Part shown: positions 21,210-56,127 of the stretch, in pieces
Layout of the letters: every line of letters begins with the position of its first letter
Position numbering within the stretch: the first letter of the stretch is position 1
DNA from: Prorocentrum cordatum
Taxonomy: Eukaryota
DNA: 64,000 bases
Direction: 5' to 3'
NCBI GenBank assembly: GCA_963575745.1
Contig: CAUYUJ010000003.1
Coordinates: forward strand, 868,001-932,000
Program-made: the position numbers and the translations under genes
Notes under the pieces: generated by a model
The model's input: the letters and a program-made list of their open reading frames with translations, nothing else
Databases searched by the model: none
Told to the model about the DNA's origin: nothing

Positions 21210-21309
21210 NNNNNNNNNNNNNNNNNNNNNNNNNNNNNNNNNNNNNNNNNNNNNNNNNNNNNNNNNNNNNNNNNNNNNNNNNNNNNNNNNNNNNNNNNNN
21301 NNNNNNNNN
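21210..21309. other. Assembly gap (100 N)
   Basis: Run of N. Confidence 1.
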
Positions 21310-29400: not shown

Positions 29401-31313
29401 CCCAGGCCCCCCCCCCCCCCTGGGCTGCCATCTTCTCGCGCAGGTCGCAGTGCAAGTCAATGTTCCTGTCCGCCGGGCCCGTGCCGCACTCCAGGTAGAT
29501 GAAGGCTACAACGGAGCGCACCTTGTGGAGGTTGGTGATCACTACCGTGATGTCGCTGCCCTCCCCCCTCTGGTCGCGCTCGTCGTAGCCCGCAATCCTG
29601 TCCTGGATGTCCAGCGTGCTGCGCGCGAGGGCACGGGTGCCCTCTCTGGTGCCTTCTCCTTCTCCTGGGCGTGCTCTGGTCCAGTGGCTGCGAAGCCCGC
29701 TCTTCCGCAGGGCCGCTCTTGCCTTGCTGACGCGCGCTGTCTGGCGCAGGCGGTGCTCCGCCATGCCGATGATGTCTCTGTCCTCCGCAATGTTGATCTC
29801 CCCGAGGTAGCCTTGCGCCTGGTGCCCCCCGGTGGTGATGTTGAAGAAATCGACGTGGAATTGGCGGCGAGCCCTCTTCTTTCTCGCCTCCTTGCGACTA
29901 CCCTGGGGACTCATCGCTTTGCACCTCTGCGACGGAGACCTCAGCTCGCCGGGCCCGGGCGACCATGCCCCTTGCCTGCTGGGCGTGAGCATCCACTCGG
30001 GCTCGGCGTTCTTCGTCTCTGCTGCCTGCTCCTGCGTCTGGTTCGGCAGTTTCGCCTGGAGCATCTGACTCAGCGGCGCCGGTGGGCTTGGCCGCTGCTG
30101 CTGCTCCAGAGCCTGCTGACTCTCTTGCTGGCTCGCGCTGTGGCGCTGGGCTCGGGCAGAGCTTCTTGCCTGACGGGCCCTGCGAGCGATCTGCCTGCTC
30201 TGCTGCTGCATCTGGTTGGCGTTCGAGGCGGCCCTGTTCGATCTGCCGCAGCTGCTCCTGGTACTTGGCCGTCTCTTCCGCCAGGTACTGCAGGTGCTTT
30301 GCCGTCTCCGCCTCGTGTTCATTGACTTTGTTGGCCATGGCCTCGCTCTTCGCCTTCGCCGCGCGCCAGACTTCTTTCTCTGGCTCTGCCCACCTGTGGA
30401 AGTCGTCGGGCTCCTTCTCGAACTGTTCCAGGAGGGCGGCCAGGTCGGGCTTGTCGGCTGGTGCTGCTGCGCCTGCTGGAGCTGGTTCAGGCTTGCCGAC
30501 TGGGCCTTGAGCGTGTCGAATTCCTCCTCTGCTGCGGTGGCCGACTCCATTGCCTCATGCAGCTTGCGTTCACTATCTGCCAGATGCTGCTTGGCGCTCT
30601 CGACCGCTTCTCCTGCTGCTCGCGCCCGCTTCTGGATATTGTCCAATCGTCTGGCTGCTGCTTCCACTGCTTTGGGTCCAACTGATGGTGCAGCTGCTGG
30701 TTGCTGAGATGCCACCAGTCCTGGCCAGAGCGCCTCATAGTGGGTGCGGACGGGATCGTCCTTGGAGAGCTTGTCGTACGCTGTGGCTGCAGCTGTGTGC
30801 TGCTGTTGGTCTCCACGCCCCTTGCCTCCTGCACCTCCTTGATGCCATCCATCCGCCCGCATGACTCTCGGCGAACCATTTACTCCTGCTCCTCCCCATG
30901 GGAGGTTGGGCCTGCTGCGGCCGTCGTCGTCGTTGAAGATGTGGCCTTCTGACACGAAGTGGGCGAGGCTGGCGCCACATATGCGGGCATCGTTTCTGCT
31001 GGTGATGTTCGTGCAGTAGCGCCACCTGCTGCACTCATCGCACACCACATAGCTGCTGCGTGGAGGACGGCTGCCGCTGCCGCTCCTCCACGGAGCCCTC
31101 TGGCCATGCGGAGCCCCCGTCCAGGCGCTGCCCGCCCCGCGTCCGCCGCCGCCATGCCCCATGGCTGCTGCGGTGCCGCCCGCGCGCGCCCGACGCCCGT
31201 CAGAAGACTGTCCTCGGTCCAGAGGTCTCCCTGCGGCCTGGAGGTTGGACAGCCCCCCAGGTTGGAGGCTGGACAGCCCCCCAGGTCATCATCTTGAGCG
31301 AAAACGGTGACGG
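23500..31313 (-). mobile_element. Near full-length degenerate LINE: ORF1, APE endonuclease, RT, Zn finger, RNase H
   Basis: ORF1 from 31162 (CDEC Zn motif, coiled coil); APE motifs FFNIT, MAEH, AGDFN, PTC, LDY; RT motifs RPIGLMHMPYRIWS, YDAANSYDSI, MVAGC, QYLDD, VRDLG; CARC...HRYYDC; RNase H motifs TVPRAEL, SDCKY, NEMADKYA. Confidence 0.92.
31293..31313 (-). other. Relict dinoflagellate spliced leader at the LINE 5' end
   Basis: Minus strand CCGTCACCGTTTTCGCTCAAG versus CCGTAGCCATTTTGGCTCAAG: 17/21 ungapped, in sense orientation, 130 nt upstream of the ORF1 ATG. Confidence 0.75.
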
Positions 31314-31413
31314 GGAGGTACGGAGGGAGGAGGAGGAGAAGGGAGGAGACGTTGGTGATGGTGGGCACCGATTGCGGGCAGCGTCCGAGTGGCTGGGAAT
31401 AAGCAGCCTGAGG

Positions 31414-31445
<32 letters not shown>

Positions 31446-32924
31446 TAAAGATATAGAAAGAGCAAAGGCGGAGAGGGGAGGAGGGAGGAAGAAAAAGGGA
31501 GAAGGAAGAAGAAAGAGGAGGAGAGTGCCGATTCACCTGGGAACCCGTGTAGGATGCGAAAGTGAGCGATTCCATACTTCGAAGTCGTGTGAGGGGTTCG
31601 CCCCAAGTCCCCGTAAGGAATACACATGTGGATGACCTTCGTATCTTCGGACTCGTCGGAATGAAGGCTTAAGCAATCAAGGCTCGTTCTTTCCCGATTG
31701 CTTTGACGTGTAACGGGCATGCTGCAGCGCAGAATGGCTCGATCCCAAGCCTTTCGTGCGTAAAGCCTGCCAAACTTTAGGTCAACGCTCAAGTGTTTTG
31801 CCTCCAGAAGCGCACACTGCACTGGGGTGCAGCATATGTTGAACAACACGAACCAGCGTTCCCGTGCAAGCACTGGTGAGGTGTAGTTACAGGGAGTTGC
31901 AGTTGCAGTGATCAGTGCAGAAGTCCAGTCAAGGAAAGGAGGGGAGGAGGAGGAGGGAAGAGGGAGGAGGGATAAGGACGGAGGAAAGGGGAGCGAGGAG
32001 GGAGCGGCGGCAGCAGCAGCAGGAGGGAGGAGGGAGGAACTGCCAGGGACTACACCCCGCTCCGAATCATACCTCCCCCTTCCCCACCCCCAACCCCCCG
32101 GACCGTCACCCATCCTCATTCCTGCTCGACCCCCCTCCTCTTCAATCTCCTCGTGCGCAGCATCAATCATTTTCATCCTCACCACGAGAAATCACCGACT
32201 ATCGTCTACGACTATCACCCACCATCTACAACCCATAAACTACCATCCATCATCGCCACCATCACCACCATTATCATCACGCCATCATCATTCATGCTCA
32301 TCCCCATCAACATCATCACCACCAGAAGCAGCAGCAGACCTCCCGCGAATCCTGGCCCCTGCGATCCTGCGAGGCGGGGATTTGTCCAGATCCACCGCCT
32401 AGGGAAACGAAGCCCTGAGCCCCCAGCGGTCGGTGAGGGTGGCCAGAGTATGTCCATGTCCACTGCCCGCCGAAGTCTCCGAAGATCGATCCCCAAGGCG
32501 GCGGGCACGTACACACTTAAGACGAAGCCAGGACGAGGATAATTTCGGGTAAACATAAATCGAGAATATCTGAGATCCCGCGGATCTGGAGAATGTCTCT
32601 GGCGCCGCGGCCTTCTCTGAGCGTTCCAGGACGCGAGAGCGTTCCGGAACGTTCTGGAACGGATCTATCTTCGTCCTAGACCCGCCCGAACATTCCCGCC
32701 TCGGACTGCGATCCCTCCCCCACGCTGCTGCCGCGACAATCCGCGGGGCCCTCTGAAAGCCTCCGCCCCGTGGCCGCAGGGCCCGGAAGGGGGCCGCGCA
32801 CCGACCCCGCCCTGGGCGGCGCGGGGGCTGGTCAGCCGAGCATCTTGGCGAACAGCGCCTTCTCCTGCTGCTTCGCTCTCCTCGGCGGGGAAGGGGGGAG
32901 GGGGGAGCATGAGGGCGAATAGGA

Positions 32925-33112
32925 TGCAAAACAATGACAGCATACATGTTTTTTCTGTGTAAAGGGTCAGGGTGTGCAAGATACATTGTATAACGATGTA
33001 GAGCGGGCGCGGAGCCTGGCCAGGCTTGAGCCTAACGCCCATGGCCCAACACTGCCCCCCACTATGCTACAAGCATGCAGACTGCCCGGCTGCCTAGCAA
33101 CCTACCGTTTGA
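32925..33112 (-). repeat. 3' LTR of copia-2
   Basis: Collinear with 53702-53869, with an identical core gagcgggcgcggagcctggccaggcttgagcc and an insertion of about 20 nt. The inner end is degraded. Confidence 0.75.
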
Positions 33113-41060: not shown

Positions 41061-44000
41061 CTGGCAAAACTCTCGACTGGCGCTGGAAACACGGCCCCGG
41101 CTGTCGCTGCTCACTGCTGGTAGCGAGCTGCTTAGGTGGAGGCTCCCCGGTCGGTGGCTTGAGCTGGTCACAATTGGATTTGGCATGCATAAATTGCCAC
41201 TTGCAGCCCGCCCCAAGTCGAACTGCAGCACGCCTGGGCCAGGTGCCACATAGCCTCAAGAATTGGGGACTGCGAGGCGCTCATTGGCTACGCTTGTCTC
41301 CGAAATCCCGTTCTTGGACTGCGTGGATTACGTAGGGCAGGGAGGTCGAAGCCTTCGCCCTCCACGGCAGGAACGCGCACGTTGCGTTGGGCGGCCGCGC
41401 CGTCGCGGGCGACAACCGCGATTGGGCAGTGCACCTCCCAATTGGCAGCCTGTGAGCCGTTGCCCAATCCTTCCACGTAGAGTGGAGACGTCAGCCTCTC
41501 ATCTGCGGGTTGGAGCCTGGCCTTCGGAGCCTCGTCGGCCAGGTTCGCGGCGAAACGCTGCCCCCAGAAATTGGGCCAGGCGCCGGCATCTACATAGGCA
41601 TAATCCGGCCGCCGGGGAGGTCGGTGCTCGCCAAGTAATATGGTGAGTCGGTTGGTGTACTCCGGCACGTGCCGGTCGGCCGCCGCGAAAACGTTGGTCG
41701 ATGCGGCAGCGCGCAAGTCCCTCCAGGCGTCGCGCGGCGCTGCCACGTCGGTAGCGGACATGAAACTGGAAGCGCTGGCAAGCTTGCGTGCGACCCTGCC
41801 GCGATGTCCCGGGTGTCGGCGCGGGCACAGGAGTTTGCGCGGCGTCCTGTTGCGGTGGCGTCTCCTCTGGCGCGCTGTCTGGCATCGGCTGGGCCAGCGC
41901 CGCAGGTGCTGGAACTGGAGAGCCCGGGTCTACCGCGCGGGCCGGCAATGCAATTGCTGGGCCCGCTGCGGCGCGATCTGCTCCGATGGACCGGGAATCG
42001 GCGACGACGCCAGCCGGGCTGCAGCGGCGCGCCGGGCAGCCCCTCAATGGGGGGGGGCGGTTTTCTGCACGGGCTGAAGGCGGCACGTCCAGCGCAGGAC
42101 GCGGGAAGCCTCGACGGAAATCGGGCACTCCCGATCGTCGCCGTTGAAGACCGCGACGAGGGGTGCAGCTGGTGCGGCAGCCGGCACAGGAGGTACATGT
42201 GTACGGGGTTCGGTCCACGTCTGCGCGGCTCGTCGTCGCTGCTCGCCCTCCTGGCCTAAGAGCTCGAGTGCAAGCCAGGCGCCGTGGAGCTCGTCGAATT
42301 GTCGTCGCTGCGCGCGTTCGAGCACGATGCCCACTCCGCGTTCAGATCGCGCGCCGCTGGACATCCAAGTGTCGCGGCCGGCGAACCGCGCGGCCAATTC
42401 CCCGGGTTGTTGGCTCGCATCTACGGGGGCGCGCTGATGGGATATAAAGCCAGCGTGTTAGAAGACTCCTGCACTGTTGGTGGCGCGGCTACCGGCGCCG
42501 ACTGCGGCGGCCTCACGGAGCTCGTTCCGCATGGCCCGAGCACTGAGATTGATGGCGCAGCTCGGCAAGTGCACATCATCGGCAGGTGGGGTAGCTGGCA
42601 CCGCGGCTCGGGCATCGATGCCGCTTGCCCAGCTGCGCCCGGGCTGCGGCCCCAGCGGGAAAGCGCCAGCCGCTCCGGCCCGGCGCTGTGGCGTCGGAGA
42701 TGGTGGCGCTGCTGATGCTGCTGGAGCCGCGGTTGCCTGCGGCTGCTGCGGCTGCTGCGCCCCTCACTTCTGCCGCTCGGACTGGCAACGCAGTGACATA
42801 GTTGCCCCATCCGTCGGTTGAGCAGAGTCCAGTCGCACGCGGCCAACGAGGTCCATCTCCTTGCGCAGTCGCGGAAGTTCAGTTTCATGGGGGTTGGGCG
42901 ATGCCGATGAAGACAAGAGTACGCGCTCCACTTGACCGATGGCCCTGTCCAACTGCCTGCCAGGATCCGCCAGGCGAAGCACTGGGAGCTGATGCCGCTG
43001 CTGGCGCTGACCGCGCCAGTCGCCGAAGCCGGAATTGGCTGGCCGGCGTTCCCGGGGCCGTTCCGGGGGCCGGCGCGCTGCGCGGGGTCGCCGCTGCGGC
43101 GCTTGAGACGCGCGCCCCGCCTGGACCTGGTAGGTTGCCTTGTCGGCCGACTCCCAATCTACTGGTCCGGAAGTTTGCCCTTCCCCTGCAGCCGGCGAAA
43201 ATTGCGCGGGGGTCAGCGTTGACCAGATCTGCCGGGAAGGCGCGGCAACCTCTCCGCGGCCTCTGCCCCCGCGTTCGATGGCCCCCCGCGCGCGGCGCGT
43301 GGGCGCATTGTTGTTCGAGCGCCGCCGTCGAGACTCCGCGCGCTCTCGGGCCCCCAAGGAAGGCGCGCTGCGCTGCCCCGCAGGAGCGCCGCGCAATTCG
43401 GGGGCGAATGCGCAGCCGAGGCGAGATCGCCCGGCGCGCCTTCGATCGCATGGCCAAATCGGCGTAGCAGGCCCATCACGTGGGCCAGTTGTGGCGCGTC
43501 CGTCGGGCAGGCCACGCGGCGGCGCCGCGGGGCCATAGCGCGCTGGATGTTCGACGCGCTCGCCGCGCGCAGTAAGAAGCATATCCCGCCCGCGTAGCCG
43601 ATCATGAGTTGGCTGGCCCGCTGCGCCCCACTGCAGCGGACGCCCAACCTGGCGTGGAAGTTGCCGGCGCGCCCCCGAGGCAATCGGTTAACATTTAGCA
43701 GGGCAAATGCGGCCTGCGCGCGCTCCTCCTTTCCCAGCTGGCCCCGCGGATCGGCCGGCCTGCGCGCGAGGTCGGTCATGGGCGGCGCATGGCCGCCGTC
43801 GACGCGGCCGCCGTGGGCGAGGACCGACGGCGGACACTCGCCCGCGCACTCGCGAGCCATGCCGGTCAAGCGAGACGAAACGTGGGCCGCCTAGCGGAAC
43901 TCGTCGGGGCCGGAGATCGCCACTGAGCAAACCATTTTCTCCTGCGCCCAGCGTTGGAAGGGCGCGCGAGTTTGCTGCTCGGGCCCCCAGGTGCGGAGGC

Positions 44001-45019
44001 ATCGCGCGTTGTTGCGGTGCCGACGCCGCTCGCGCGCATGCAAGCGACGCAGCTGACGGCGGCGATCCGATGGCCTTCCATACGGAGTGGAGCCCCTCCA
44101 GATGTTGAGGAGGCGCGGCAGCCCTTGCACCCGCCAGCGGCAATGTTCTGGCAGCGATACTCGAAGCCGTCGTAGGCGTCAGTCTCTGGCACGCTCGTCC
44201 TCATCAGCGCATTGGGCCTCTCTTCTGTCGGGCGTTTGGCGCGCAGGCCGCATTCGGAGGCACCCCGCCACGTGGTGGCGAGAGAACTCGAAGTGCGTGG
44301 CATGATAATCAAGAGGAGTACGCATCGGGACTCATGCCTGTCCGGAGGCAGGGAGCGCGCGGGAAAGTTCGAGAATCATGCCCGTGAAAACCGACAGCGG
44401 GTTGTCCCAAACTCGCGTGACAGTCCCCCAGAAGTTTGGCAACACAATTGCCCGGCCCTCTTTCGTATTTCTGATATTTCCTGCACGCACTTCCCCCGGC
44501 TCTCGCAACGTAGCTGCGCTTGGCTCGGGACGCTCCGCCACCGCCAACGGTGAACGGCGTGGGCGTCGGATCGAACGCTTGCTTGACATAGCCGGCTGCG
44601 CCCACATGCGACTGAAATGGGGTCGACAGGTCTGGTCCTTGTCTCCCTCTGGCTGTCGCAGCACAGTTACTCTTAGGTCGCAGCCCTGCATCGGCGCCGC
44701 GGATGTGGAAGCCGGGTCGTTCGACGTTGTGACATCAGGGGCCACGCTCACTCGCGAATGCTGTGGCGACATGGAGCCCCCGAGCCTATCGAACATACTT
44801 CGAACAGTCCCGGGAAAGAAGGGGCGGGGGGCGCCGCCCATGTAAATCTCTTAATCGTGGTTGTAAGTGTGCTGCGGATCCTGCGCCGGGAGTGGCGGCT
44901 GGGCCTGGCCGTTCCCGCCAGACCCCCTGGAGGCGCGACGCCTGTTTGGGAAGAGGGAAACGATCAGCCCACCTGTAGAGCGGCATGTCGAGCGGGAGGT
45001 CGTCGGAGACGACATAGAA

Positions 45020-45244
45020 ATAATCTACGCGCCCACCTTAGCTACTAGACTGGGTCCGAGGGACCAAAAGCATTGTTTTTTTTGCTGGTTGGAGTGAACG
45101 TAAGGTTTAAGGTGAGAGAGAGCGGGTTTCCATAGGGAACAACATTGGGGCGGCTGGAGCCGCTCTCCCCCCAAGGAGGGATGCATCCCCTTGACGGGAG
45201 GCCGACCGACCGAGGGGCGATGCATCCCTCTGGCCGATCCCCCC
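45020..45244 (-). repeat. Split direct repeat B2 (3' terminus)
   Basis: Same as 45616-45840 apart from homopolymer lengths. Confidence 0.95.
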
Positions 45245-45403
45245 CCTTGTAACAGAGGGGAAATGCCTCCCTCATGCGCGACCAACCACGGAGGGGAGAT
45301 GCATCCCTCATGCGCGAAGTGTCGCGCTCGAGGCTTCGTCGCTTCGCTTACCCTCTTGGCCCCCCCCCAGCTTGCTGAATGCAAACCCAGGGCGGGAGGG
45401 TGG

Positions 45404-45615
45404 GAAAAATCAAATCGCAAGGTGAGCGCGGCCACCGCGGCCCGTCGCCCCCCCTTCCTCGCAGCCCCTCGGCGCGGGCAGCGAAGGGGGGGGGCGCCCC
45501 CCCCCTCTCTTCGCCCCTGCGCCCCGAGCTGCATGCGCGGGCGACGTTTCCAAGGTGTCCGCGCGCGTACATTATGAAGCACTCACCCATGCCTGCCCGG
45601 GCCTAAAGTGCACCC
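45404..45615 (-). repeat. Split direct repeat A2
   Basis: Same as 53402-53620 apart from a 6-nt indel, homopolymer length and one edge substitution. Confidence 0.95.
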
Positions 45616-45840
45616 ATAATCTACGCGCCCACCTTAGCTACTAGACTGGGTCCGAGGGACCAAAAGCATTGTTTTTTTTTGCTGGTTGGAGTGAACGTAA
45701 GGTTTAAGGTGAGAGAGAGCGGGTTTCCATAGGGAACAACATTGGGGCGGCTGGAGCCGCTCTCCCCCAAGGAGGGATGCATCCCCTTGACGGGAGGCCG
45801 ACCGACCGAGGGGCGATGCATCCCTCTGGCCGATCCCCCC
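45616..45840 (-). repeat. Split direct repeat B1
   Basis: Abuts A2 directly (gtgcaccc|ataatc on the plus strand). Confidence 0.95.
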
Positions 45841-45936
45841 AACGCTGCTCACCCCCACGCCCCGCTCGCTCACCCAACGCTGTTCACTTACCGAGCAACA
45901 CAATGTATAACGGCGCGTCGCAGCCACACGTGGGGG

Positions 45937-48333
45937 CTACCCGCGGGCGAAGCGCCATGCGCTCTCCAAGCTGCCCGTCCAAATACGACTGTCCACGCCG
46001 ATTCGCTTTGCTGGAAATCGATGTCGCCTCACAAACGCGTCACTTCCTAGCTGCCTCGAAATCCCGTCCGACCAATTGGTCCCCGAAGGCGTGAATTCCC
46101 ACCACGTGGTGATCGAACGGCGGCTCGCCAAGAAATTAGTGAAAGCAATCGACCGATCCAGCGCGGCCGGCACCGCGCAGCCCTTGACGTACGAATGCAG
46201 AGAGCTGGTATTGTCTATGAAATACAGCACGCGGCGGTTTGCCAGCCGCTTAGCGTGGCGCTGGTAGATGATGGGCGGCATCGCGCCCTCACACAGCGCG
46301 ATGGGCTGGCCGCCCTGCCTCAAGCGCTCCTCACAGTAGCCCCACATGCCCAGCAGAGCCCCGTCAAAAACGCAGAAGCCAGCTTGCCGATAGCCGTCGG
46401 CGCAATCTAACAACACGTACCCCCCTGTCGGCCACGCGTCATTGTCAGCGCGCGCGTCAGAAGCAATGAGAATCAAAGGCTCGCTTCTCGGCGCGATCTC
46501 GGCCACGCGGCTCGGCATGTCTTGCAGAATTATATAAAAGAAATCGAGGGCGCGCACCAGGCAGTTGCTCAGGGTCCAAGGCGGCTGATCTGTGTACTGC
46601 CGTTGCCTCAGAGCCCCCATGCCTGCTTTGCCCACGCCGTGCCACGCCGCTCTGGCGATGAAGTTGAGGAGGCCTCTCAACTTGCTGGCGTCTCTGGGCG
46701 TGAGCCTGCCCTCGCTGCGCCTCGCCGCAATGAACGTCTTCGCCTTTTCGACGAGAGTGTCGCGCGCCCTGAAAGATATGACATTCGAGTCCAGCGAAGG
46801 GCCGAAGGTGTGCACGACGCCCAGAAAATCGCCGGACGGGCTCATCCTCCTCGTCTTCGAGGGAGCCACAGGCGTGCCCAACTCCGCGCAAAGGCACTGT
46901 GCGGCCTCCTGACCAGCGCCCCCAGCTGATTCAAAATCAGTAATATTCGCGTCGTCCACATACATGGCAAGCAAAAGCGACAACACGCGGCGCTGCACTG
47001 CCTGCAGGAATCCTCCCCATCGCGCGAACTGCATGACTGACGCGGAGAAACCGAAAAGCAACGCCCACGCCACCTGGAACCTCCATTCTCCCGTGACAGG
47101 ATCGCGGACCGCCACGACGTTCAAGCGCAAGTGATCTGGGTGCACTGGGACTGAGCGATAGGCCGACGGCAAATCTTCGCCCCCCGACACGAGCCTCTCG
47201 CGGGCCACGTCGGCACCAGCGTCCGCACACGCTTGCCGGACCACCCTCGCATCGATGACAGGCTGGAATGGCGTACACATTCTTTGCCGCTCACAAAATG
47301 CCGTCGCTTCGTTCTGCCTACCCCGACGCCCGTCGTCGATTCTCCTCCTTTTTCCAGAAGGCTGAATATGGCAAAACGCAGGAATCGGCGCCCACTGCCC
47401 CGCGCCGAACTCCGCATCAATGTCCGACTTGCTTCGCAGCGGTGCCGCCCAGCCTTTCTTGCACTCTTCCTCGCAGCTATCCCAGAGAAATTGGCCCTCC
47501 TCACTCGCGCGCTGGCGATCCAGTTCCGCCAGCAAGACTTTGGACTCTCCAAGCAGCGAGTGCACGGGCATGGGAGCTTCATACTCGGATGGTTCAAAAG
47601 CACCCGTATTCTCCATTACGCCAGTGATGCCAAAGCCGGTGACAAAGCGCAACGCCAGCTTTTGGTCTGGCCACCGCGCGAGCACCACCAGCACGGCAAT
47701 GAGTCCGGCGTGAATATGCCCCGCCACGGCGCGCACAGTCGGACTCTGCCACTTCAAGAGCTCCGCCGTGAGGGGCTTGCACCGGCGACTAAGCTCTTGC
47801 AGCGCGTGCATGCTGCGCAACCGAAACTCCCTCAAGTCGCGCAGCTCTGCGGCGGTGGACTCCGCCGCAAATTTCAAGTCATGCGGAGCAGCAACGTCCT
47901 CATCGAACGGTAACTTCCCCCGCTTCGCGAAATCAACCGCGGCGCGGAAATGCTCTTCCTCATCCCGGCTGTGGCCCAGGAGAGGCGGCAACGCGTGCTT
48001 GGCCGAGAGCGCCCCGGCCTGTCGCCCCGCCGCGGCTTCCAGCATGGCAGACGTGCCCTGGCCTGCCGTGCTGCCAACTGGTCCAGCGATGCTGCGCTCG
48101 TCTAGCCACTTTGCGAAATCCACGAACGGCGACTGATTGACTAGATCTTCCAATGACGGAAAAACAAAACTGCTCAGCCATTCCCTGGGGAACATGCTGA
48201 CGACGCACTGCCGCAATTGGCGCTGCGACCACATCACGGGGAAGTGCCTCGATACCCGCGGCGCCTGCGCAAACGAAGACGCGCCGTCGCTCGGCGCCCC
48301 GCGCTGATGCGCTCGCGCCTGCGGTGCCGACAC
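45937..48333 (-). CDS. Reverse transcriptase-RNase H of the YR element (true start uncertain; frame is open back to the gag stop)
   Basis: 798-aa open ORF: RRIDD, DLPSAYRSVPV, LLFG, MYVDD, FLGV; RNase H ASDA, IALCE, FIDN, NWSDGISR. Confidence 0.95.
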   Translation of the reverse strand: MSAPQARAHQRGAPSDGASSFAQAPRVSRHFPVMWSQRQLRQCVVSMFPREWLSSFVFPSLEDLVNQSPFVDFAKWLDERSIAGPVGSTAGQGTSAMLEAAAGRQAGALSAKHALPPLLGHSRDEEEHFRAAVDFAKRGKLPFDEDVAAPHDLKFAAESTAAELRDLREFRLRSMHALQELSRRCKPLTAELLKWQSPTVRAVAGHIHAGLIAVLVVLARWPDQKLALRFVTGFGITGVMENTGAFEPSEYEAPMPVHSLLGESKVLLAELDRQRASEEGQFLWDSCEEECKKGWAAPLRSKSDIDAEFGAGQWAPIPAFCHIQPSGKRRRIDDGRRGRQNEATAFCERQRMCTPFQPVIDARVVRQACADAGADVARERLVSGGEDLPSAYRSVPVHPDHLRLNVVAVRDPVTGEWRFQVAWALLFGFSASVMQFARWGGFLQAVQRRVLSLLLAMYVDDANITDFESAGGAGQEAAQCLCAELGTPVAPSKTRRMSPSGDFLGVVHTFGPSLDSNVISFRARDTLVEKAKTFIAARRSEGRLTPRDASKLRGLLNFIARAAWHGVGKAGMGALRQRQYTDQPPWTLSNCLVRALDFFYIILQDMPSRVAEIAPRSEPLILIASDARADNDAWPTGGYVLLDCADGYRQAGFCVFDGALLGMWGYCEERLRQGGQPIALCEGAMPPIIYQRHAKRLANRRVLYFIDNTSSLHSYVKGCAVPAALDRSIAFTNFLASRRSITTWWEFTPSGTNWSDGISRQLGSDAFVRRHRFPAKRIGVDSRIWTGSLESAWRFARG

Positions 48334-48432
48334 ATCGGACTCCTGCTCGCCCGATGACTGCGCTGATTGCGCCTGGCCGAGAACGCGCGCTTGCTGCGCG
48401 CGGAAACCTGGCTGGGCGCTGGGTGCGCCCGC
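48265..48432 (-). other. Two candidate GC-AG introns in the gag-pol linker: 48265-48318 (54 nt) and 48373-48432 (60 nt)
   Basis: CAG|GC...CAG|G boundaries, with the same size and 5' sequence as the other introns. Both are frame-neutral, so less certain. Confidence 0.55.
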
Positions 48433-48519
48433 CTGCGCTGGCGCAAAGAAGCCGTGCTCCGCTGGACAGGCAACGTGCCCCCCTGCCTCGGCGCTGTCCT
48501 CCGCCCTGGCGGGGCCCCT

Positions 48520-50070
48520 TCAATACTGCGACAACGCGCCCTGCTCCGGGATCGGCGCCTTGCGGCACACGGCGGCGCAGTGATTCCTCATGCCGCAGAC
48601 GCGGCCGCTCTTGCTCACGATCATGGAGCATGCGTGCTCCAGATTCTTCGGGCAGGGCTCCGGGCACGACCCCCGATTGAAATTCTTGCACAGCTCCTTT
48701 CCGTTCTTGAGGTGGGTCGCCAAACCGGTGCTCGATCCCTTCTGCGCGCCCTTGGGGTTGCGCTGCCCGCGCCCTGCACCCGCGCCTCCCTGCTGCGCCG
48801 CAGGTGGCGGCGGGGCGCCCCGCGGGGCTCCGCGCGCGAAGTCCGCGGCAGGCCGCGCGTCGGGGGCTGGTGCGAAGCCGCGTGCGGGGATCTCCCACAT
48901 GTGCTCCCTCCTTTCGAAGACATCCTTGATGATCTTTCCCAGCGACATGGACGTGCGGCGATGCCTGCACGCCGGTGGAACGTTCGCGACACTAGCCCCT
49001 CGCAGCTCGCGGATCGCGGCGCGCCTGTCAACCCACTGCTGTCGCTCCTCCTCATCCCGCTGTTGCAGCCACTGGAGGGCCTGACTCGGGGGAAGGATGG
49101 TGGCACACTGTGCGAGCCTCCTGTGGTAGGCGAGCACGACATCCAGCGGCACCTGACGCGCGACGGACCGCCGGTTGCCGCGCGCGATGCACCGCGTTCG
49201 CGCCTCGACGTAATCCGTGCTGTCGCGATCCATTGCCTCTGGTTCCGCTGGCTGCGGATCCAACTGGACGACGCCTGCACGCGCCGCGCGCGCTGGAAAC
49301 GCCAGCGTCGCGATGCACAGCGCGCTGTTGCGCCTGCACGCGCGTGCGCCAGCATCAGTGTGTGATGCAAATTGACATACGTTGCCACGTCTCTGCGCGG
49401 TTCCGTGTCGAATTCGTTCGCTTGCTCCCCTGTGACGAGGACTAGCCCCTCCGCAATGCGCTGCCGCTTCCTCGTCATGGTCAGCTGATGCGTCAACGTC
49501 TTCACGCGGAAAACCGAATGCACCTGCGGACGCGCGCGCGAACGACCGCGCGGAGACGCGCGCAGCGCGCACAACGCCAACGCGTGCCTGCAGCAAACGC
49601 CGCGACAGCTCCTTTGAGATTCTGCTCACCAAGTGATCGCACGGCTCAGTCTTGACCCCGAACCCCAGGCGATACCTCGCGTAAAACTTGGCGCGGATGT
49701 CTTTCAGGTCACTGTTGGGCAGGAGCGCATCGAGGTCATCATCCTCGACGCCACGCTTCTTCCGCGTGTCGGAGATCGTTTCGGCCTGCCTCGCCGCGGT
49801 CCAGGCCTGGCGCAGCCGCGACGCTTGAATCCCTGGGAAAGAAAGGCCCTCGATCTTTTCGATTACCTTGGTTTCGACTTCCTGCTCCGACGTGAAGAAG
49901 TGTGTGAAATCAGCCATGCTCTCGAGGCCCGCGACTGACACCAAGTGGGTGGCCACCTTGGGGTCCAACCGGAACGCGTTGCACAAAAGCGTAAACAGCT
50001 GTTCCGCGGCCTCGCGGCCTCCCGACACAGACGGCAGCTGCAACGCCTGCCCGCCGATCGAAAGCGCCAT
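48520..50070 (-). CDS. Gag-like protein, 5 exons, 438 aa after splicing
   Basis: Exons 50070-49588, 49523-49334, 49274-49204, 49152-49025 and 48964-48520. Joins read RRLLQ|VHSVFRVK, LAHARAG|VVQLDP, TDYVE|VPLDV and WVDR|HRRTS. C-terminal Cys/His cluster CKNFNRGSC..C...HAC. Confidence 0.85.
   Translation of the reverse strand: MALSIGGQALQLPSVSGGREAAEQLFTLLCNAFRLDPKVATHLVSVAGLESMADFTHFFTSEQEVETKVIEKIEGLSFPGIQASRLRQAWTAARQAETISDTRKKRGVEDDDLDALLPNSDLKDIRAKFYARYRLGFGVKTEPCDHLVSRISKELSRRLLQARVGVVRAARVSARSFARASAGAFGFPREDVDASADHDEEAAAHCGGASPRHRGASERIRHGTAQRRGNVCQFASHTDAGARACRRNSALCIATLAFPARAARAGVVQLDPQPAEPEAMDRDSTDYVEARTRCIARGNRRSVARQVPLDVVLAYHRRLAQCATILPPSQALQWLQQRDEEERQQWVDRRAAIRELRGASVANVPPACRHRRTSMSLGKIIKDVFERREHMWEIPARGFAPAPDARPAADFARGAPRGAPPPPAAQQGGAGAGRGQRNPKGAQKGSSTGLATHLKNGKELCKNFNRGSCPEPCPKNLEHACSMIVSKSGRVCGMRNHCAAVCRKAPIPEQGALSQY
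48965..49587 (-). other. Four GC-AG introns in gag: 49524-49587 (64 nt), 49275-49333 (59), 49153-49203 (51), 48965-49024 (60)
   Basis: All have AG|GC...CAG|G boundaries; the first two switch the frame into and out of exon 2. Confidence 0.85.
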
Positions 50071-50399
50071 CGCGCACGTGAGGACAAGTCGCAACGCCTC
50101 GCGCCCTCAAGATCGCTGGCACGTCTGCTCGCGCGCTGAAAGCAACGGCTTGCGCATGGCGTGCGCTGGCGTTATTGCGCGCTGCAACATGCGCTCACAA
50201 ACTGCTGATGCAGCAAAATGCGCGGACATGGCCACGCCGCACCGCTTGTGCGCTCATACTGCGCTTGCGCGGCCCCAGCGCAGGCTGCTGATGCAGCACC
50301 CGCGCACGCACGACAACTCTACGATTTCCGCTCGCGTGGGTCGCGCTGGTGCAATATACGCGCGAAAAGCGACCGCGCGGACATGGCCGCGCTGCAATG

Positions 50400-53348
50400 C
50401 TAGTGCGTACGGCCCTGCGCCCGCGCGGCTATCGCAAGCACGGCATCCCGGGCCGCCAGTACCGACGGCTGGCACGCCGCATGTTCCAGCTCATGGGCTG
50501 CTCGGGCCAGGAACGCCGCGCGATTCTGGCACCTGCGGCATACCAGATCACCGTCGGTCAATCTTCCGACCCACGTGGGGGAAGCCAACGTGACGTCGCA
50601 CGCGTTCGTCAGCTGCTTCCTGTTGACTAAGACAGAAGTCTTCTCCGCCTTTCGTCGCTTGCGTGATCTGATACGCGGAGAGCCGCTGACTTCAATGGCG
50701 ACGTGATGACGCTCATTCGTGACAATCCAGCCTAGCTCGGCGGGAATGCCGATCGTTGCCCCGTCGCAAACCTTGGGCAAAGCGCACAAGCGACGCGCGC
50801 GCTCGCCATGCAACGGCGCTGGCGAGAAGACCGCTGCTGATGCGGGGTTCAGTCTGGCTGGCTGCGACGGTGGCGCTGGGTGCGCCTGCACAGCGACCGA
50901 ACGCTTTGCTCGCATGACGCGGCTTCGGGCGCTATTTGCGCCGGCCTGCGGGGCGCCCGCTACCGTGTCTCCCACGGCCGATGATGGCGCGGAGTGCGCC
51001 TGAACGAAACGGCGGCGCTGCACATGCGCACATTACGCTCCCCCCCGGCGCTGCGTGCGCCTGCACCGCTGTTGTTGCTGCAGCGGGCTGCACATACGCC
51101 CGCGACGGTGACGCTGCCTGCGCCTGCGCGGTAAAGAAGCGCTCCGCGCACGACGACCCCTGGCGCTGCGTGCGCCCGCCTGCGCTGATGCTGCTGCAAC
51201 AACGTCGCCCCCAAGGGCTGACGTTGGCGCTGCATGCGCTCGCGCTGCTGCTGCAGCTGCCTGCACATACGCCCGCGACGGTGACGCTGCCTGCGCCTGC
51301 GCGGCAAAGAAACGCTCCGCGCGAATTACAAAGCCCCTGGCGCCGCATGCGCCCGCCTGCGCTGCTGCTGCAACAACATCGCCCCCAAGGGGTGACGTTG
51401 GCGCTGCCTGCGCCTGCGCTGCTGCTGCCGCAGGGGCAGCTCCAACCGCTGGCGCCGCTGCTCCCGCAAGCTCCCCGGCACTCGGCTGTGCTGCCGGCTT
51501 TGCCCGCTCGACGGGCAACGCTGCGGATGACTGGCTGTCTCTTTCCTCATCGCTGCCGATCTCGCCTTCCTCTAGCGCGCGTTTACCAGCGATCCCGCGC
51601 AGGCGCTGCGCCCGCCGCGGCCGCTGCGGCGGCTGGGCAGCGCGGCGGCCCCGGCTGCGGAACTGTCGCCTCAGCGCTGCGCTCTGCTCCCCGTAATTGG
51701 ACGCGGTGAACGCGCCAAACCGCCGGCGCGCCAGCTCTTTCTTTACCGCCGGCGGCAGAAACTTCGCGGGCTCGGGCGCGCCCTGTGCCGCCAGCAGCTG
51801 CATCGCGCGGCGCCGCGCGCCCGCTGCGACCTCCTGCGCGGCTGGCGTATCCCACCAAGCTTTGACCCCTTCGAATCGCAGGGGGGCTGGCAAGCTGGCC
51901 ACGGCCTCGTGAAACACTTCGTGCATGTACAGACGGACGAAACCCTGCTGCTCACGTCTGGTTCCAGCGTATCGCAACGGCATCATGTTCGGGGCGCCGG
52001 TGCTTCCGCCACCATCGCGGGGCGTCCAGCCCCCGCCAACAACGCGCTCTGTCCACGGAAGCTGCACGCTTTCCGCCAACGTCGGCATGAAACGCCTCAG
52101 GCTGTACGACGTGATCAGTTTCCTCTCGAGCGGTGAATTCAGACAAAGGCCGATCTCAGACTGCAGAAACTTTGAGAAGTGCGCGAGACGCCAGAGCTGC
52201 CCCGTATCCTCGTGCGCCGCGAGGCCCCTTGGCAGGGGGGCGCCTTCGCCGGCAGCCCCTGCGCGCTTATGCCACGCGTCCCAGAGCACATCCGCTGCGC
52301 AACGCGGCTCCGCGGTCCGCACCAGGCACCAATCGAAACATCCGCCGCGCTTTCCGCGGTAACATCTGAACCAGGCCAGCGCTCTCGTCCTTTCAATCGG
52401 GTACGACCGTGACAAATGCTGGAATCTCAGCCACCCGTGGCACAGCGCGATCGCTGCAGCGGCGGGAACCTCGAGCCAACCGCGCTGCGCTGCCTGTGCG
52501 GCAAGTATCTGATGCAGGAACGATACCATGCACGGCTCGAGCACGGTCGCTTGCCGCAACTCTCCCCCCGCTTTGCTCGCGGGCCGCGCGTCTGGCTTCA
52601 TCGCGTCTTCGAGCGCGAACGGCGCACCGAGATACTTCTGCAGCCACTTCAACCGATTCCACACGCGCACCCCGGAGGCTTGTTCACCGCACATATGACA
52701 TATGAACTCGTCCACCATCAGTGTGCTGCCAGCAGCCTCCGCGGAGAGGGGCTCGAGCTGCCGTGCTCGGGCCCACGCCTCCCATCTCGCCCAGACGCGC
52801 AGCGCGTCCCGGACCCCCGCGCTCGCGAAGCGCGCCAGCCTCTTCGCCGCCGCGGACCCGGGTCCGCACAAGCGCTGCGCCTGGCCCTCGGGGAGCCCCC
52901 GCGCCAAGCCGTGCGCTGGGCCCCAGGACGCGGACAGCTGCACCGCTGCCCCGGCCGCGCTGGCGCGCTGCGCGGCGTCCGCCTCCTCTGTGCCGGAGGC
53001 GCTCGCCGCCGCGCGCTGCACGCCGCGCCCCCCTCTTGGCGGGCGCAAGCCAGGGAGGACCATCGCCAGCGCGCGTGGCGGAGCGTCCGCCTTGCGCGCG
53101 GGCGGCGCTGACTGCGCCTCGCGGGCCACCCTGTGCCACGCTGCCACTCGCGGATGCCCCGCGAGCTGCCGAGCTCGCCGCCACGCCTCCTCCTGTCCCG
53201 AGGCCGCGGCTGCCTCCACCGTGGTAAAGAAAAATGCCAGGTCGTCGACGTCCTCGATGCCTACCTCCCTGACGAAACACCAGAAGCGAGCGCGCGCGTC
53301 GACCGGCAACGTACTCCCTATGGCGGCCAATCCACATTCGCCTGCCAT
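50400..53348 (-). CDS. Tyrosine recombinase with a long Ala-rich tail and C-terminal His/Cys cluster, 903 aa after splicing
   Basis: LRFQH (R), RGK (K), YSLRR (HxxR box with H>Y), GGW and MPLRY (catalytic Y). Three minus ORFs are joined by splicing; the tail has RHH...C...CRRC. Confidence 0.88.
50886..51356 (-). other. Four GC-AG introns in the YR tail: 51297-51356 (60 nt), 51124-51179 (56), 51000-51060 (61), 50886-50945 (60)
   Basis: All have CAG|GC...CAG|GC boundaries; the 56- and 61-nt introns coincide with the two apparent frameshifts. Confidence 0.82.
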
Positions 53349-53401
53349 CGCCACCGCCAAGCAAATGGATGCGAAGCGCAAAAGACAGCAGAGAAACCCG
53401 A

Positions 53402-53620
53402 GAAAAAACAAATCGCAAGGTGAGCGCGGCCACCGCGGCCCGTCGCCCCCCCTTCCTCGCAGCCCCTCGGCGCGGGCAGCGAAGGGGGGGGGCGCCCCCC
53501 CCCCTCTCTTCGCCCCTGCGCCCCGAGCTTGAGCTGCATGCGCGGGCGACGTTTCCAAGGTGTCCGCGCGCGTACATTATGAAGCACTCACCCATGCCTG
53601 CCCGGGCCTAAAGTGCACCC
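53402..53620 (-). repeat. Split direct repeat A1 (5' terminus)
   Basis: Matches 45404-45615. Confidence 0.95.
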
Positions 53621-53682
53621 AAGACCGCCAAGGGCACGGGGCGAAGTCACGCGGGCCATGGCGGCAGTTGGTAGAGCGACGC

Positions 53683-53694
53683 GCTCCGCTACCA
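53683..53694 (-). promoter_or_regulatory. Primer-binding site of copia-2 (initiator tRNA-Met-like)
   Basis: Minus strand TGGTAGCGGAGC, 7 nt after the LTR; 10/12 match to the TGGTAGCAGAGG iMet complement. Confidence 0.65.
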
Positions 53695-53701
53695 ACTAGA
53701 G

Positions 53702-53869
53702 TGTAAAGCGATGGCACAAGATCTGTTTTTGCGTGTCAAGCTGAAGGGTATGTGGAGCGGGCGCGGAGCCTGGCCAGGCTTGAGCCACACGCCCATGGCC
53801 CAACCCTGGTCCCTGCTATGCTTCAAGCGTGCAGACTGCCATGATACCGTGTAGCCTAACGTTTGTGCA
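53702..53869 (-). repeat. 5' LTR of copia-2
   Basis: TG...CA ends, homologous to 32925-33112, adjacent to the PBS. Confidence 0.8.
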
Positions 53870-53914
53870 AGAAGAAGTCGGAGGACGGGGAAGGGGAGGA
53901 AAAGGAGGAGGACT

Positions 53915-54810
53915 AAATGGAGGACCGGCGTAATACCAACACGCATCAACGGTGATGCAATAAACCGCACCCCTTGTATGAATTATGGCCATTGCGGTAA
54001 GCGCCCACCTAGAAGACAACCGTTTGAGAATCATCAATCGTGCCAAAACACCATTCCTTCGACTTCAGCACCGCGAATCAAAGTGACTGTTGCGCCCTGA
54101 CAGCCCTAAATCGTGCCAGTGTACCATTCCAGGGTCTTGTACCACACGAACCTTTAAATTGTTGTAAACAAAACTCATGTGCGCGGTGTTAATGCGAACG
54201 CCACATGTTGAAAACAGCACGACCTCCACCCTTGAAACATTTATATATGTTAACAAACGATTGTGCGCGGCGCTCAAGCGATGACCACATGCTGACAACG
54301 AACCACCCTGTATCCAGGAAGTGGCTACAAATGTTGAAGACGAATGTGCGCAGTGCTTCGGCCATAACCACAGCTTGACAACCACCCGCCCTCCATCCGC
54401 GAAGCTGCTGCGAGTTCCAAGCTTCATGATCAAAAATTGAAGGGACATTTCACGCGAAACGCCCAACCCGCCCTACTAACACGTTTGGGGCTGCGACAGC
54501 GAAGAATTATTTATAAGGATAATGGGATGAGTAAGAAGAGGGCCACTACCGTAAACCCAAAACGCATCAATGATGTTGTGAAGAACCGTCCCTCCAAAGT
54601 CGCCCCTGACGCATACCCCAAATAATGTTGTCTCTTTGCGGTTAATTTTCAATTTTAACACAACCGTTTGGGAATCTGGAACTGCGCCGAAACACCATTC
54701 CTGGGGCTTCAGCGCTGCGACTTAACCTGACAGCCGCGTCCTGGCAATCCTACGTCTTGCCAGAATACCATCTTTGAGACTCCTTCGACACCACGAAGCA
54801 ACGTTAATGT
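53915..54810. repeat. Diverged tandem duplication with a period of about 620-645 bp
   Basis: acgcatcaa at about 53941 and 54562; caaccgtttg.gaatc...aaacaccattcct...cttcagc at about 54018 and 54662. Confidence 0.7.
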
Positions 54811-54952
54811 TACGTCGTGAGGATATTGTCAAACATACGGACCCCTGAACCTACTGCATGGATGGTGAGGAGGTTTCCGGCGAAACACCGGCCCGCCCTG
54901 CCGACAAATCTGGGGGTGCGACAGGAGGAACTTATTAATTCCCTCTGTCAGT

Positions 54953-55165
54953 CTGTCGGTCTGGCGGCTTTGTTGCCGCCGTCGCCGCCCCGTCGCCGAC
55001 CCGACGCCGCCCGTAATTGGGCCTGTCGGTCCGGCAGCTATGTTGCCGCTGTCGTCGCCACGTCGCCGCCTCGCCGCCACCCGTATCTGGGCCATTCTGT
55101 CGGTCTGGGAAATATATTGTCGCCGTCACCGCCCTGTTATCGCCGTCGCCGCTCGCTGCCGCCGC
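54953..55165. repeat. Tandem repeat of about 70-74 bp, 3 copies
   Basis: ctgtcggtc(t/c)gg...ttg(c/t)cgc.gtc at 54953, 55023 and 55097. Confidence 0.75.
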
Positions 55166-55689
55166 GATATGGCACAACATAGGTTGAACAACATATATAG
55201 CACAGAATAGGTTGCAACACACATATTGCATCAAGTTTATTGTTTCACGTAGACTGCACAGCGTGGTGCACCATATGGGTTGCACTACATGGATTGCACC
55301 ACATCGGTTTCACAACAGAGAGAACACACCATAGACTGCGCACAACATGTTGCACAACACAAGTTCTCCGTTCTTTAAAAAGAATAGATTCTACCCCCCC
55401 CCCCAGGATTATCCCTCCTTTTCGCATTGCAATTTACATATGGGTCTGTCCATCGCCCATCGCATATATGAACTCAGACCATCCCAGGGAAACCAGTATC
55501 GACCCCCCCCCCGTTCTCCTCTGGAGACAACTATGCGCGCGCACTCATCTATCACAACTAATACGTTGTTCCATACACCCTTACAACACATGGGACGAAG
55601 TGCGCGCGTCGTCGAGCGCGCATGCCGACGTGACCAGCAATAATATAAAACACACATGGTGTCGCAACACGGATGTTCAAACACAACTT

Positions 55690-55885
55690 GAGCGCGCGCT
55701 CTGGAGAATTATTTTGAAAATCCTAGGTCTTTCAACGGTTCATAAAATGCCAATGCTATCAAACGGGATTCGCGCGCGCATGTTAAAAACCGTTCGAACG
55801 CCATTGCGCTCGTGCTGTCGCGAGAATCCTTTGCAACAAACGGGACGAAGTGCACGCGCGCGTTGTCGCGCCGAAATCTGTCAAA
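55690..55885 (+). repeat. Dispersed repeat, copy 2 (copy 1 at 7720-7925)
   Basis: Same shared blocks as copy 1. Confidence 0.75.
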
Positions 55886-56127
55886 AGCCTTTTAGGTTTC
55901 GCAGGGCCTCCTCCTCCTCCTCCTCGCACCTCCCTCCTCCCTCCTCTCTCCTATCTCATCATCCCCCCGCTTCCACGATGCCCCGAGCTCCTCTCGCCCG
56001 CCTCCGCCGCGCGGGCGAGCTGCAGCGCCTCCACGCTACCGGGCGCGGCCTTCAGCAACGCCTGGGCAGCCTCGGAGGCGCGGTCGTACTCTCCGAGCGC
56101 CAGGCAGACCTTTGGGCGCGCTCCAAG

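Follow-up and report, generated by a model that had tools for sequence, protein, structure and literature searches.

An 8.6-kb element of Prorocentrum cordatum with its tyrosine recombinase ahead of gag-like and pol genes: a probable methyltransferase-free relative of the SymbioDIRS retrotransposons

Of all retroelement orders, that of the retrotransposons with a tyrosine recombinase is the least understood, and it is by the arrangement of genes and repeats that its members tend to be classified; Ngaro elements, for example, place the recombinase after the reverse transcriptase (RT) and RNase H. The element described here lies on a 64,000-nt stretch of Prorocentrum cordatum DNA (assembly GCA_963575745.1, contig CAUYUJ010000003.1, positions 868,001 to 932,000 of the forward strand), hereafter called the window, in whose own numbering all coordinates are given, and it combines on one strand a recombinase, a gag-like gene and a pol gene for RT and RNase H, in that order. 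In the excerpts of PMC3266345 used here, DIRS1 and PAT elements run gag, RT/RNase H (with or without a methyltransferase) and the catalytic part of the recombinase last; the excerpted text of PMC6681497 gives VIPER and TATE the order gag-like gene, recombinase, RT/RNase H, together with the same A1...B1-A2-B2 repeats as Ngaro and PAT. The DIRS-like elements of Symbiodinium (de Mendoza et al. 2018, PMC5890265) are described in passages of that paper as having repeats in the order A-coding-B-A-B, an RT invisible to Pfam and "shuffled" integrase and Pol open reading frames (ORFs) that form two architectures according to ORF order; according to the same passages their recombinase was named from the Pfam model Phage_integrase, and DIRS copies without a DNA methyltransferase (DNMT) also occur.

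Our reading of the locus, to which we assign a probability of roughly 0.8, is that of a DIRS-order tyrosine-recombinase retrotransposon of 8.6 kb, belonging to a divergent, dinoflagellate-type marine lineage and related to the SymbioDIRS elements as a form without methyltransferase. Its three long ORFs, numbered in the direction of the element, encode the recombinase (ORF1), the gag-like protein (ORF2) and RT/RNase H (ORF3, pol), and the order in which they stand is a property of the lineage. Metagenome contigs were scanned with a nine-sequence RT alignment, and recombinase and gag were then sought by profile; 38 loci carry relatives of the RT, at identities of 22-51% (in the short locus L030 a segment reaches 81%). 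Seven of these loci (L008, L013, L014, L015, L018, L023 and L029, with RT identities of 33-36%) contain a recombinase of the ORF1 family, and in all seven it stands upstream of pol on the same strand, with none downstream or on the other strand; the seven are exactly those in which the contig continues for more than about 1.2 kb beyond the gag-like ORF on its upstream side, and two of them (L023 and L029) are partly near-identical and not fully independent. Homologues of ORF2 were found in 14/38 loci, always immediately upstream of pol, and wherever both are present the gag-like gene sits between recombinase and pol. The repeats behind pol recur as well: L018 and L008 have, directly after pol, a pair of direct repeats of 245 nt and 190 nt, respectively, at 99% identity, which mirrors the two B repeats of the window copy, and both contigs end at the second repeat copy.

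Two loci weigh against an order common to the whole lineage, namely L033 (27% identity, 3.4 kb of sequence upstream of the RT) and L036 (1.7 kb upstream), neither of which gives a recombinase or gag match. In L034 no recombinase was found, and its downstream ORFs are unrelated genes. In a FastTree phylogeny of the RT (29 sequences over 318 profile columns, rows under 200 residues dropped, root placed arbitrarily on L034) the window copy groups with the database proteins P0004, P0005 and P0007-P0010 and with locus L001, while, of the recombinase-first loci in the tree, L008 and L013-L015 fall into a different subclade, so that the recombinase-first order predates the split between the two. An earlier sequence-only reading of this DNA had proposed the order recombinase, gag, RT/RNase H from the single copy; it recurs in every locus with enough upstream sequence and in contigs from four sequencing runs (see below), and a check of other copies reproduces both the order and, in L018 and L008, the repeats of B1/B2 type after pol. 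Upstream of the recombinase ORF, L013 (positions 1-266) and L014 (1-950) bear tandem arrays with a period of 111 nt.

The element runs from 53621 to 45020 on the minus strand (8602 nt, 65.6% G+C) and reads, 5' to 3', A1, the three ORFs, B1-A2, a spacer and B2. The 5' terminal repeat A1 (53402-53621) begins at the 5' end of the element and matches its internal copy A2 (45404-45616) at 96.4% identity over 220 columns, with one 6-nt and one 1-nt indel and no substitutions before the inner end. B1 (45616-45840), the internal copy of the 3' repeat, abuts A2, and the 3' terminal repeat B2 (45020-45244) closes the element at 45020; the two B copies are 99.1% identical over 226 columns and differ solely by two 1-nt homopolymer indels. 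Between A2 and B2 lies a unique spacer of 159 nt (45245-45403) with further copies of a GGGATGCATC-like motif that is also present in B. ORF1 extends over 51033-53348 (ATG at 53348, TAA stop at 51035-51033), ORF2 over 48520-50070 (ATG at 50070, TGA at 48522-48520) and ORF3 over 45937-48519 (first ATG at 48234, TAG stop at 45939-45937); measured from stop to stop the three frames are 53576-51033 (847 aa), 50106-48520 (528 aa) and 48519-45937 (860 aa). The repeats and the three open frames on one strand, as put forward in the sequence-only reading, hold at these positions on the minus strand; its repeat layout stands too, save that it had passed over the spacer between A2 and B2.

A search of 43000-56000 for inverted repeats returned no pairs. 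The joint between B1 and A2 (..gtagattat/gggtgcac.., the slash here and below marking a boundary) equals the joint that both element ends would form in a circle, and, a possible T or TT apart, no duplication is seen in the flanks (..ggcggtctt / element / ttctatg..). Near-palindromic GGGATGCATCCC-like motifs are repeated on the minus strand in B1, B2 and the A2-B2 spacer (45020-45403 and 45616-45840), and they may be binding sites of the recombinase. Neither a tRNA nor any Rfam family was detected in the 64-kb window, and the single 2-mismatch match to 15 nt taken from the spliced leader of dinoflagellates was equalled in 11/100 shuffles and is therefore not above chance.

The stretch between ORF1 and ORF2 (50071-51032, about 960 nt) has no recognizable coding content; it gave only short low-complexity matches in tblastx, a 210-aa ORF within it matches no Pfam model, and the corresponding spacer in relatives is only about 30-370 nt long. 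Such an unusual spacer without homologues is what could be expected of a chimera or misassembly in which a Crypton-like recombinase element came to lie beside or inside an unrelated gag-pol retroelement. We nevertheless regard this explanation as very improbable: in the seven divergent loci the three ORF families are again found on one strand and in this order, A1 stands before the recombinase and A2 behind pol, the repeats thereby binding the whole unit together, and contigs assembled from runs of four studies cross the junctions. A Crypton consists of a recombinase only, whereas here RT and RNase H lie inside the same repeat-bounded unit.

The latter contigs come from a wider set of 20 sequencing runs in 16 studies that contain words of the element, seven of them with at least half of the sampled words. 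From four of the runs, each of a different study, contigs were compared with the window; one of these runs is possibly the source of the window itself, which leaves at most three independent. Two contigs of 5307 nt (runs X1 and X3) span pol, gag, the spacer and the recombinase's 3' end with 4 and 5 differences, a 2680-nt contig of run X2 covers 48438-51117, and a further 2157-nt contig of X1 covers 51275-53431; overall the contigs differ from the window at 3-5 positions, and they break at the repeats and at a tandem duplication within ORF1. Since contigs of four runs from four studies reproduce the order, the element is not a chimera. In X2 the words of the element have a depth of about 90-175 and those of its flanks one of 0-0.8, which fits many near-identical copies at other sites, and the four runs scarcely cover the flanks at 44500-45020 and 53622-53808. 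This copy of the element is young, given that its repeats differ by indels only and that the family is multicopy at no less than 99.9% identity in other runs, in agreement with the recent origin suggested in the sequence-only reading. At four positions (46695, 49346, 50621 and 50674) the window copy has private bases, which none of the contigs laid out above for the four runs shares.

ORF1 is a tyrosine recombinase, standing in place of a DDE integrase. It consists of an N-terminal helical domain of about 80 residues, a disordered linker, a Cre-like two-domain core (about 52946-51819) with the predicted catalytic tyrosine codon at 51971-51969, and a low-complexity C-terminal tail that contains a 174-nt tandem duplication (51073-51428). 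A HMMER search of 1.84 billion representatives returned 204 relatives at E<=1e-3, 88 at <=1e-10 and 18 at <=1e-30, and in an alignment of the 55 relatives that cover most of the query (residues numbered from the ATG at 53348) the catalytic positions are conserved almost without exception: R308, K333 and R418 in 55/55, W441 and Y460 in 54/55. The place of the first histidine of the recombinase signature is occupied by a tyrosine, Y415, kept in 51/55. When the family profile was compared with the PDB, Cre accounted for 16 of the 18 sequences listed and was matched over its N-terminal domain at E values of 1e-3 to 2e-2. An AlphaFold model built from the 55-sequence alignment reached a mean predicted local distance difference test score (pLDDT) of 86.5 and a predicted template-modelling score (pTM) of 0.75, and the top rows of a Foldseek search with this model were all Cre or Tre, followed by other tyrosine recombinases.

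Against the assignment it must be held that the best Foldseek E value was 1.9e-3, with none at or below 1e-3, that ORF1 matched no Pfam model, and that 0/55 of its relatives matched Pfam Phage_integrase; a phmmer search of ORF1 against the PDB also gave nothing meaningful. An N-terminal domain shared between the recombinase and the gag-like protein is a weak lead at most (hhalign probability of 12%).

The case for ORF3 as an RT joined to an RNase H is weaker than that for the recombinase but consistent with it, and it is drawn from the conservation of motifs and from a lead in the Atlas search. RT motifs are predicted at about 47364-46810 and the RNase H residues D-E-D-D at about 46467-46054. 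Twelve relatives were found at E<=1e-3, with identities from 97% down to 27%, and across the 13 sequences the following residues are invariant: K295, R297 and I299 (motifs 1-2), D354 (motif A), F394-G395 (motif B'), Y425, D427 and D428 (motif C, which reads Y-V-D-D in the window copy), K460 (motif D), F470-L471-G472 (motif E) and D593 of the RNase H. The remaining RNase H positions are kept in 12/13 (E649), 10/13 (D674) and 9/9 of the sequences that reach so far (D723). In the Atlas search with the RT part the nearest named clusters carry RVT_1 (16/30 matches) and also RT_RNaseH, which we take as a lead only. In the other pan of the balance lie the absence of any Pfam match for ORF3 and of any significant match of the RT profiles in the PDB, where the best RT-like row (8r0s) had an E value of 1.5; phmmer of ORF3 against the PDB likewise returned nothing meaningful. 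Among the relatives only one matched RVT_1 (E 0.12), and a hepadnaviral RNase H model was hit in two distant loci (E 1e-3 and 8e-3), below its own cut-off. Taken together, the alignments and the recombinase model uphold the recombinase and RT/RNase H labels given in the sequence-only reading. With RT and recombinase both lacking a match among Pfam models, annotation based on Pfam may well miss this lineage.

No ORF of the element has a methyltransferase domain by Pfam, as that reading had likewise noted, and several relatives of ORF3 carry accessory domains. P0015 (E 2e-35) bears a C5 methylase (PF00145, E 2e-11) N-terminal to its RT; in P0006, P0013, P0014, L003 and L005 pol is extended at its N terminus by about 500 aa that include DUF4326, and in L034 and L036 DUF4326 is inserted between RT and RNase H. 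The extension of L003 pol has no match in the PDB. By eye, the first 250 or so residues of the DUF4326-bearing forms may resemble a degenerate methylase.

ORF2, directly upstream of pol and in the same frame, is best called gag-like, its label being drawn from its position and its zinc knuckles. The knuckle region (about 48690-48565) has a conserved C-terminal pattern, C-x7-C-x3-C-x5-H-x-C-x9/10-C-x4-H-x4-C, with weak profile matches to CCCH fingers (E 0.035-0.4). The Atlas search with ORF2 returned unnamed clusters only, one with Luciferase_N and one with zf-CCCH. No capsid (CA) fold was found for the protein, a Foldseek search with the gag-like model giving no match (best E value 0.67); of the sequence-only label, then, position and knuckles are confirmed, and nothing further speaks for Gag.

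The sole Pfam match among the three ORFs falls on the N-terminal domain of ORF2 (about 50007-49792 on the minus strand, residues 34-105), which matches Luciferase_N (PF05295, E 1.1e-8; 35 bits, the cut-off being 25), as do 3/12 of the ORF2 relatives. In a structural model of one relative this first gag domain is predicted to resemble the fold of SAM oligomerization domains. In dinoflagellates, Luciferase_N forms the N terminus of luciferase and of luciferin-binding protein (LBP), a domain for which we know of no role. The match suggests that the first domain of a mobile-element gag protein and the N-terminal domain of the luciferase/LBP family share ancestry, thereby joining the former to a well-known dinoflagellate protein family.

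ORF3 starts directly after the TGA of ORF2 in the same frame, an arrangement that recalls the gag-stop-pol of gammaretrovirus type, in which the two genes share a frame with one stop codon between them. In 9/11 same-frame cases (the window copy, L013, L023, L029, L012, L003, L007, L006 and L001) gag and pol have just one in-frame stop between them, a TGA, followed by A in eight cases and by C in one, with G+C-rich sequence beyond; of the other two, L009 has TGG in this place and a TAG seven codons on, and L008 has several in-frame stops between gag and pol. Because the TGA link recurs down to about 35% RT identity, we propose that pol is probably made as a gag-pol fusion by read-through of the UGA.

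Several observations nonetheless weigh against read-through and would be accommodated if pol were made from its own ATG (48234) or if all TGA copies were defective. ORF3 has its first methionine 95 codons from its start, at the point where P0004 and other predicted proteins begin; gag and pol are in different frames in three relatives (L014, L015 and L018); and, at variance with the gammaretroviral type, the stop here is UGA and no pseudoknot or stem is supported downstream of it, the consensus energy being -1.3 kcal/mol and the z-score of the window copy -0.14. It is hard to see from these alternatives why in the nine cases there should be exactly one stop, invariably TGA and usually with an A after it, over such a range of RT identity, or why the stretch from the TGA to the first methionine should be open in all of the same-frame TGA cases, and we consider them quite unlikely.

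A more complicated picture emerges within ORF2 itself. The gag profile also matched a second minus-strand frame inside it (ORF 49625-48624, residues 34-102, E 4e-11), and relative to its homologues the window ORF2 contains four extra segments: 49524-49587 (64 nt, cag/GC...GCAG/g), 49275-49333 (59 nt, cag/GC...GCAG/g, flanked by an 11-nt direct repeat), 49153-49203 (51 nt, gag/GC...TCAG/g) and 48965-49024 (60 nt, cag/GC...GCAG/g), all on the minus strand. The ancestral reading between the first two runs in another frame, so that some 63 codons of ORF2 are out of the ancestral frame unless two of the segments are taken out. With all four excised, a frame of 450 codons (450 aa) without any stop is obtained, a gag profile built without the window sequence matches in one piece at 353 bits where it had matched in four at 226 bits, and identity to L003 gag increases from 31% (114 gap positions) to 41% (34 gap positions). 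ORF1 and ORF3 have no such window-specific insertions. The ORFs, from whose openness the sequence-only reading had taken the copy to be possibly active, are therefore open in the literal sense, but ORF2 owes this in part to its G+C-rich DNA, and the homologous reading of gag requires that the four segments be removed.

All four boundaries conform to AG/GC ... CAG/G. Over all pairs of start and length in the element, GC..AG occurs in 1.0% and the full motif in 0.03%, and, with 11 placements allowed per segment, all four would fit GC..AG by chance with a probability of about 1e-4 and the full motif with one of about 1e-10. Such boundaries are at home in dinoflagellates: GC or GA donors with AG acceptors are called 'canonical' dinoflagellate splice sites in PMC12584245, and GC/GA-AG introns make up 25-74% of the introns of three genomes in a table of PMC7789003. 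Most simply, the segments may be taken as short spliceosomal introns of the dinoflagellate GC-AG type, and we put the odds of true splicing slightly short of even.

That caution reflects a series of observations that tell against introns. At 51-64 nt the segments are much shorter than typical dinoflagellate introns, the medians quoted in the respective passages being 208-501 nt (PMC7789003) and 439 nt (PMC12584245), and each of them is flanked by a direct repeat of 3-11 nt, which slippage could also leave. No DNA copy without the segments was found among the contigs of the four runs, and P0179, a protein 86% identical, reads through the three segments that it covers, from which it follows that the segments have survived many rounds of copying. 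The same facts favor the notion that gag is simply broken in this subfamily, the segments being insertions by slippage or duplication and ORF2 remaining open only through its G+C-richness; the family would then be copied with the proteins of other elements or be multiplied at the DNA level. Slippage or duplication would be expected to leave the flanking repeats, the probability that the roughly 140 extra or shifted codons stay open by chance at about 75% G+C is by our estimate around 0.14, all DNA contigs of the four runs keep the segments, and the protein search brought up no near-identical spliced protein. A broken gag nonetheless leaves unexplained why AG/GC...CAG/G should stand at all four segments, which chance is very unlikely to provide, and why excision should restore both an open frame and exact colinearity with the relatives. 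A comparison with P0179 likewise seems to favor introns, as segments 1-3 are 65-74% identical to it and exons 1 and 3 94-96%, but the part of exon 4 that is covered is as low as the segments, at 65%, and the test is equivocal. Weighing both sides, we hold a broken gag to be doubtful, if well short of remote, and keep short introns as the simplest account.

Also speaking against introns, the segments show no hairpin signal (z -0.84 to +0.98) and no mutual similarity, and a common origin as an introner family was therefore rejected; a frameshift in the gag of L006, considered as a further intron, proved to be a plain shift. Should the segments indeed be spliced, the element would be a retrotransposon that keeps its introns through an RNA stage, which would bear on the gain and retention of introns in dinoflagellates.

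How the parts might work together can be sketched as follows. A full-length RNA would be transcribed from A1 to B2, and the recombinase would be translated from the 5' ORF. The gag-like protein would multimerize through its SAM-like domain and bind nucleic acid through the CCCH/CCHC knuckles, while ribosomes that now and then read through the conserved in-frame UGA would make pol as a fusion with gag; the AG/GC...CAG/G segments would be spliced from the messenger and retained in the RNA template. Once the RNA has been copied into cDNA, the internal B1-A2 joint would let the ends be rebuilt into a circle, which the recombinase would insert site-specifically and without target duplication.

Set beside the described systems, the element departs from each in a different respect. 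With Ngaro and PAT it shares the split direct repeats A1...B1-A2-B2 and the combination of a recombinase with RT/RNase H (PMC6681497, in excerpt), and with Ngaro also the lack of a methyltransferase; it differs from both in having the recombinase first instead of after RT/RNase H and in the 159-nt spacer between A2 and B2. The methyltransferase domain that PAT-like and DIRS1-like elements have in pol was not found in any of its ORFs. Three ORFs, split direct repeats and a recombinase upstream of RT/RNase H are common to VIPER and TATE (excerpts of PMC6681497), in contrast to which the recombinase here also precedes the gag-like gene, gag and pol forming what would be one read-through unit. DIRS1 of Dictyostelium likewise has a recombinase, RT/RNase H and a gag-like ORF and inserts without target duplication (PMC3266345, passages on this element), but its inverted terminal repeats, internal complementary region and methyltransferase domain have no counterpart in the window element.

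The nearest relation is with SymbioDIRS-Dnmt3 and the DNMT-less DIRS copies of Symbiodinium, which, as far as the passages of PMC5890265 go, have in common with the window element the A-coding-B-A-B repeats, separate ORFs for recombinase and Pol and an RT not seen by Pfam. The C5 methylase fused ahead of the RT in P0015 ties the element to this group, and the accessory domains in relatives of ORF3 mirror the domain shuffling described in those passages, on which account we file it as a DNMT-less relative. The differences are that the Pol ORF of the window copy has no Dnmt3-type C5 methylase and that its recombinase family, again going by the excerpted description of SymbioDIRS, has no Phage_integrase match. 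The sequence-only reading had held that the layout matched none known and that the element represented a distinct lineage; the first of these statements is not borne out as worded, in view of the precedent of "shuffled" integrase and Pol ORFs in the excerpts of PMC5890265, and of the second the lineage-wide order stands, although the lineage had already been described in part.

The word 'gag' does not occur in the main text of PMC5890265, and neither introns nor a gag-like ORF nor a stop codon separating gag from pol is mentioned in its passages on these elements. A literature search for this layout found only that paper and a 2026 preprint citing it; as far as can be told, an explicit recombinase, gag-UGA-pol plan with intron-like segments is not in print. 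The window element would thus give the 2018 Symbiodinium elements a fuller anatomy, and a conserved recombinase-first order with gag-UGA-pol would constitute a fourth layout beside DIRS1/PAT, Ngaro and VIPER/TATE. A bolder proposal is that of a separate, dinoflagellate-centred superfamily with a fixed recombinase, gag-UGA-pol plan; in the subfamily of the window element, gag would contain four true GC-AG spliceosomal introns passed on through retrotransposition, and the SAM-like domain at its N terminus would have a common ancestor with that of luciferase and LBP. We offer it tentatively and with the odds set distinctly against it. If it were true, the element would, like retroviruses, need to apportion its RNA between spliced messenger and unspliced template.

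Elsewhere in the window, a run of 100 N at 21210-21309 marks an assembly gap. A LINE-like retroelement occupies 23500-32200 on the minus strand, with matches to Exo_endo_phos (29003-31285, E 1.5e-5), RVT_1 (25015-26241, E 5e-4) and RNase_H (23679-24929, E 5e-5); its domains lie in separate stop-to-stop ORFs, so this copy is probably frameshifted. Just 5' of both retroelements there is a stretch of 91 nt, 89% identical between 53750-53840 and 32996-33086, and in runs X2 and X6 the word depth over 53809-54100 is very high, from which we conclude that another repeat family adjoins the recombinase element.

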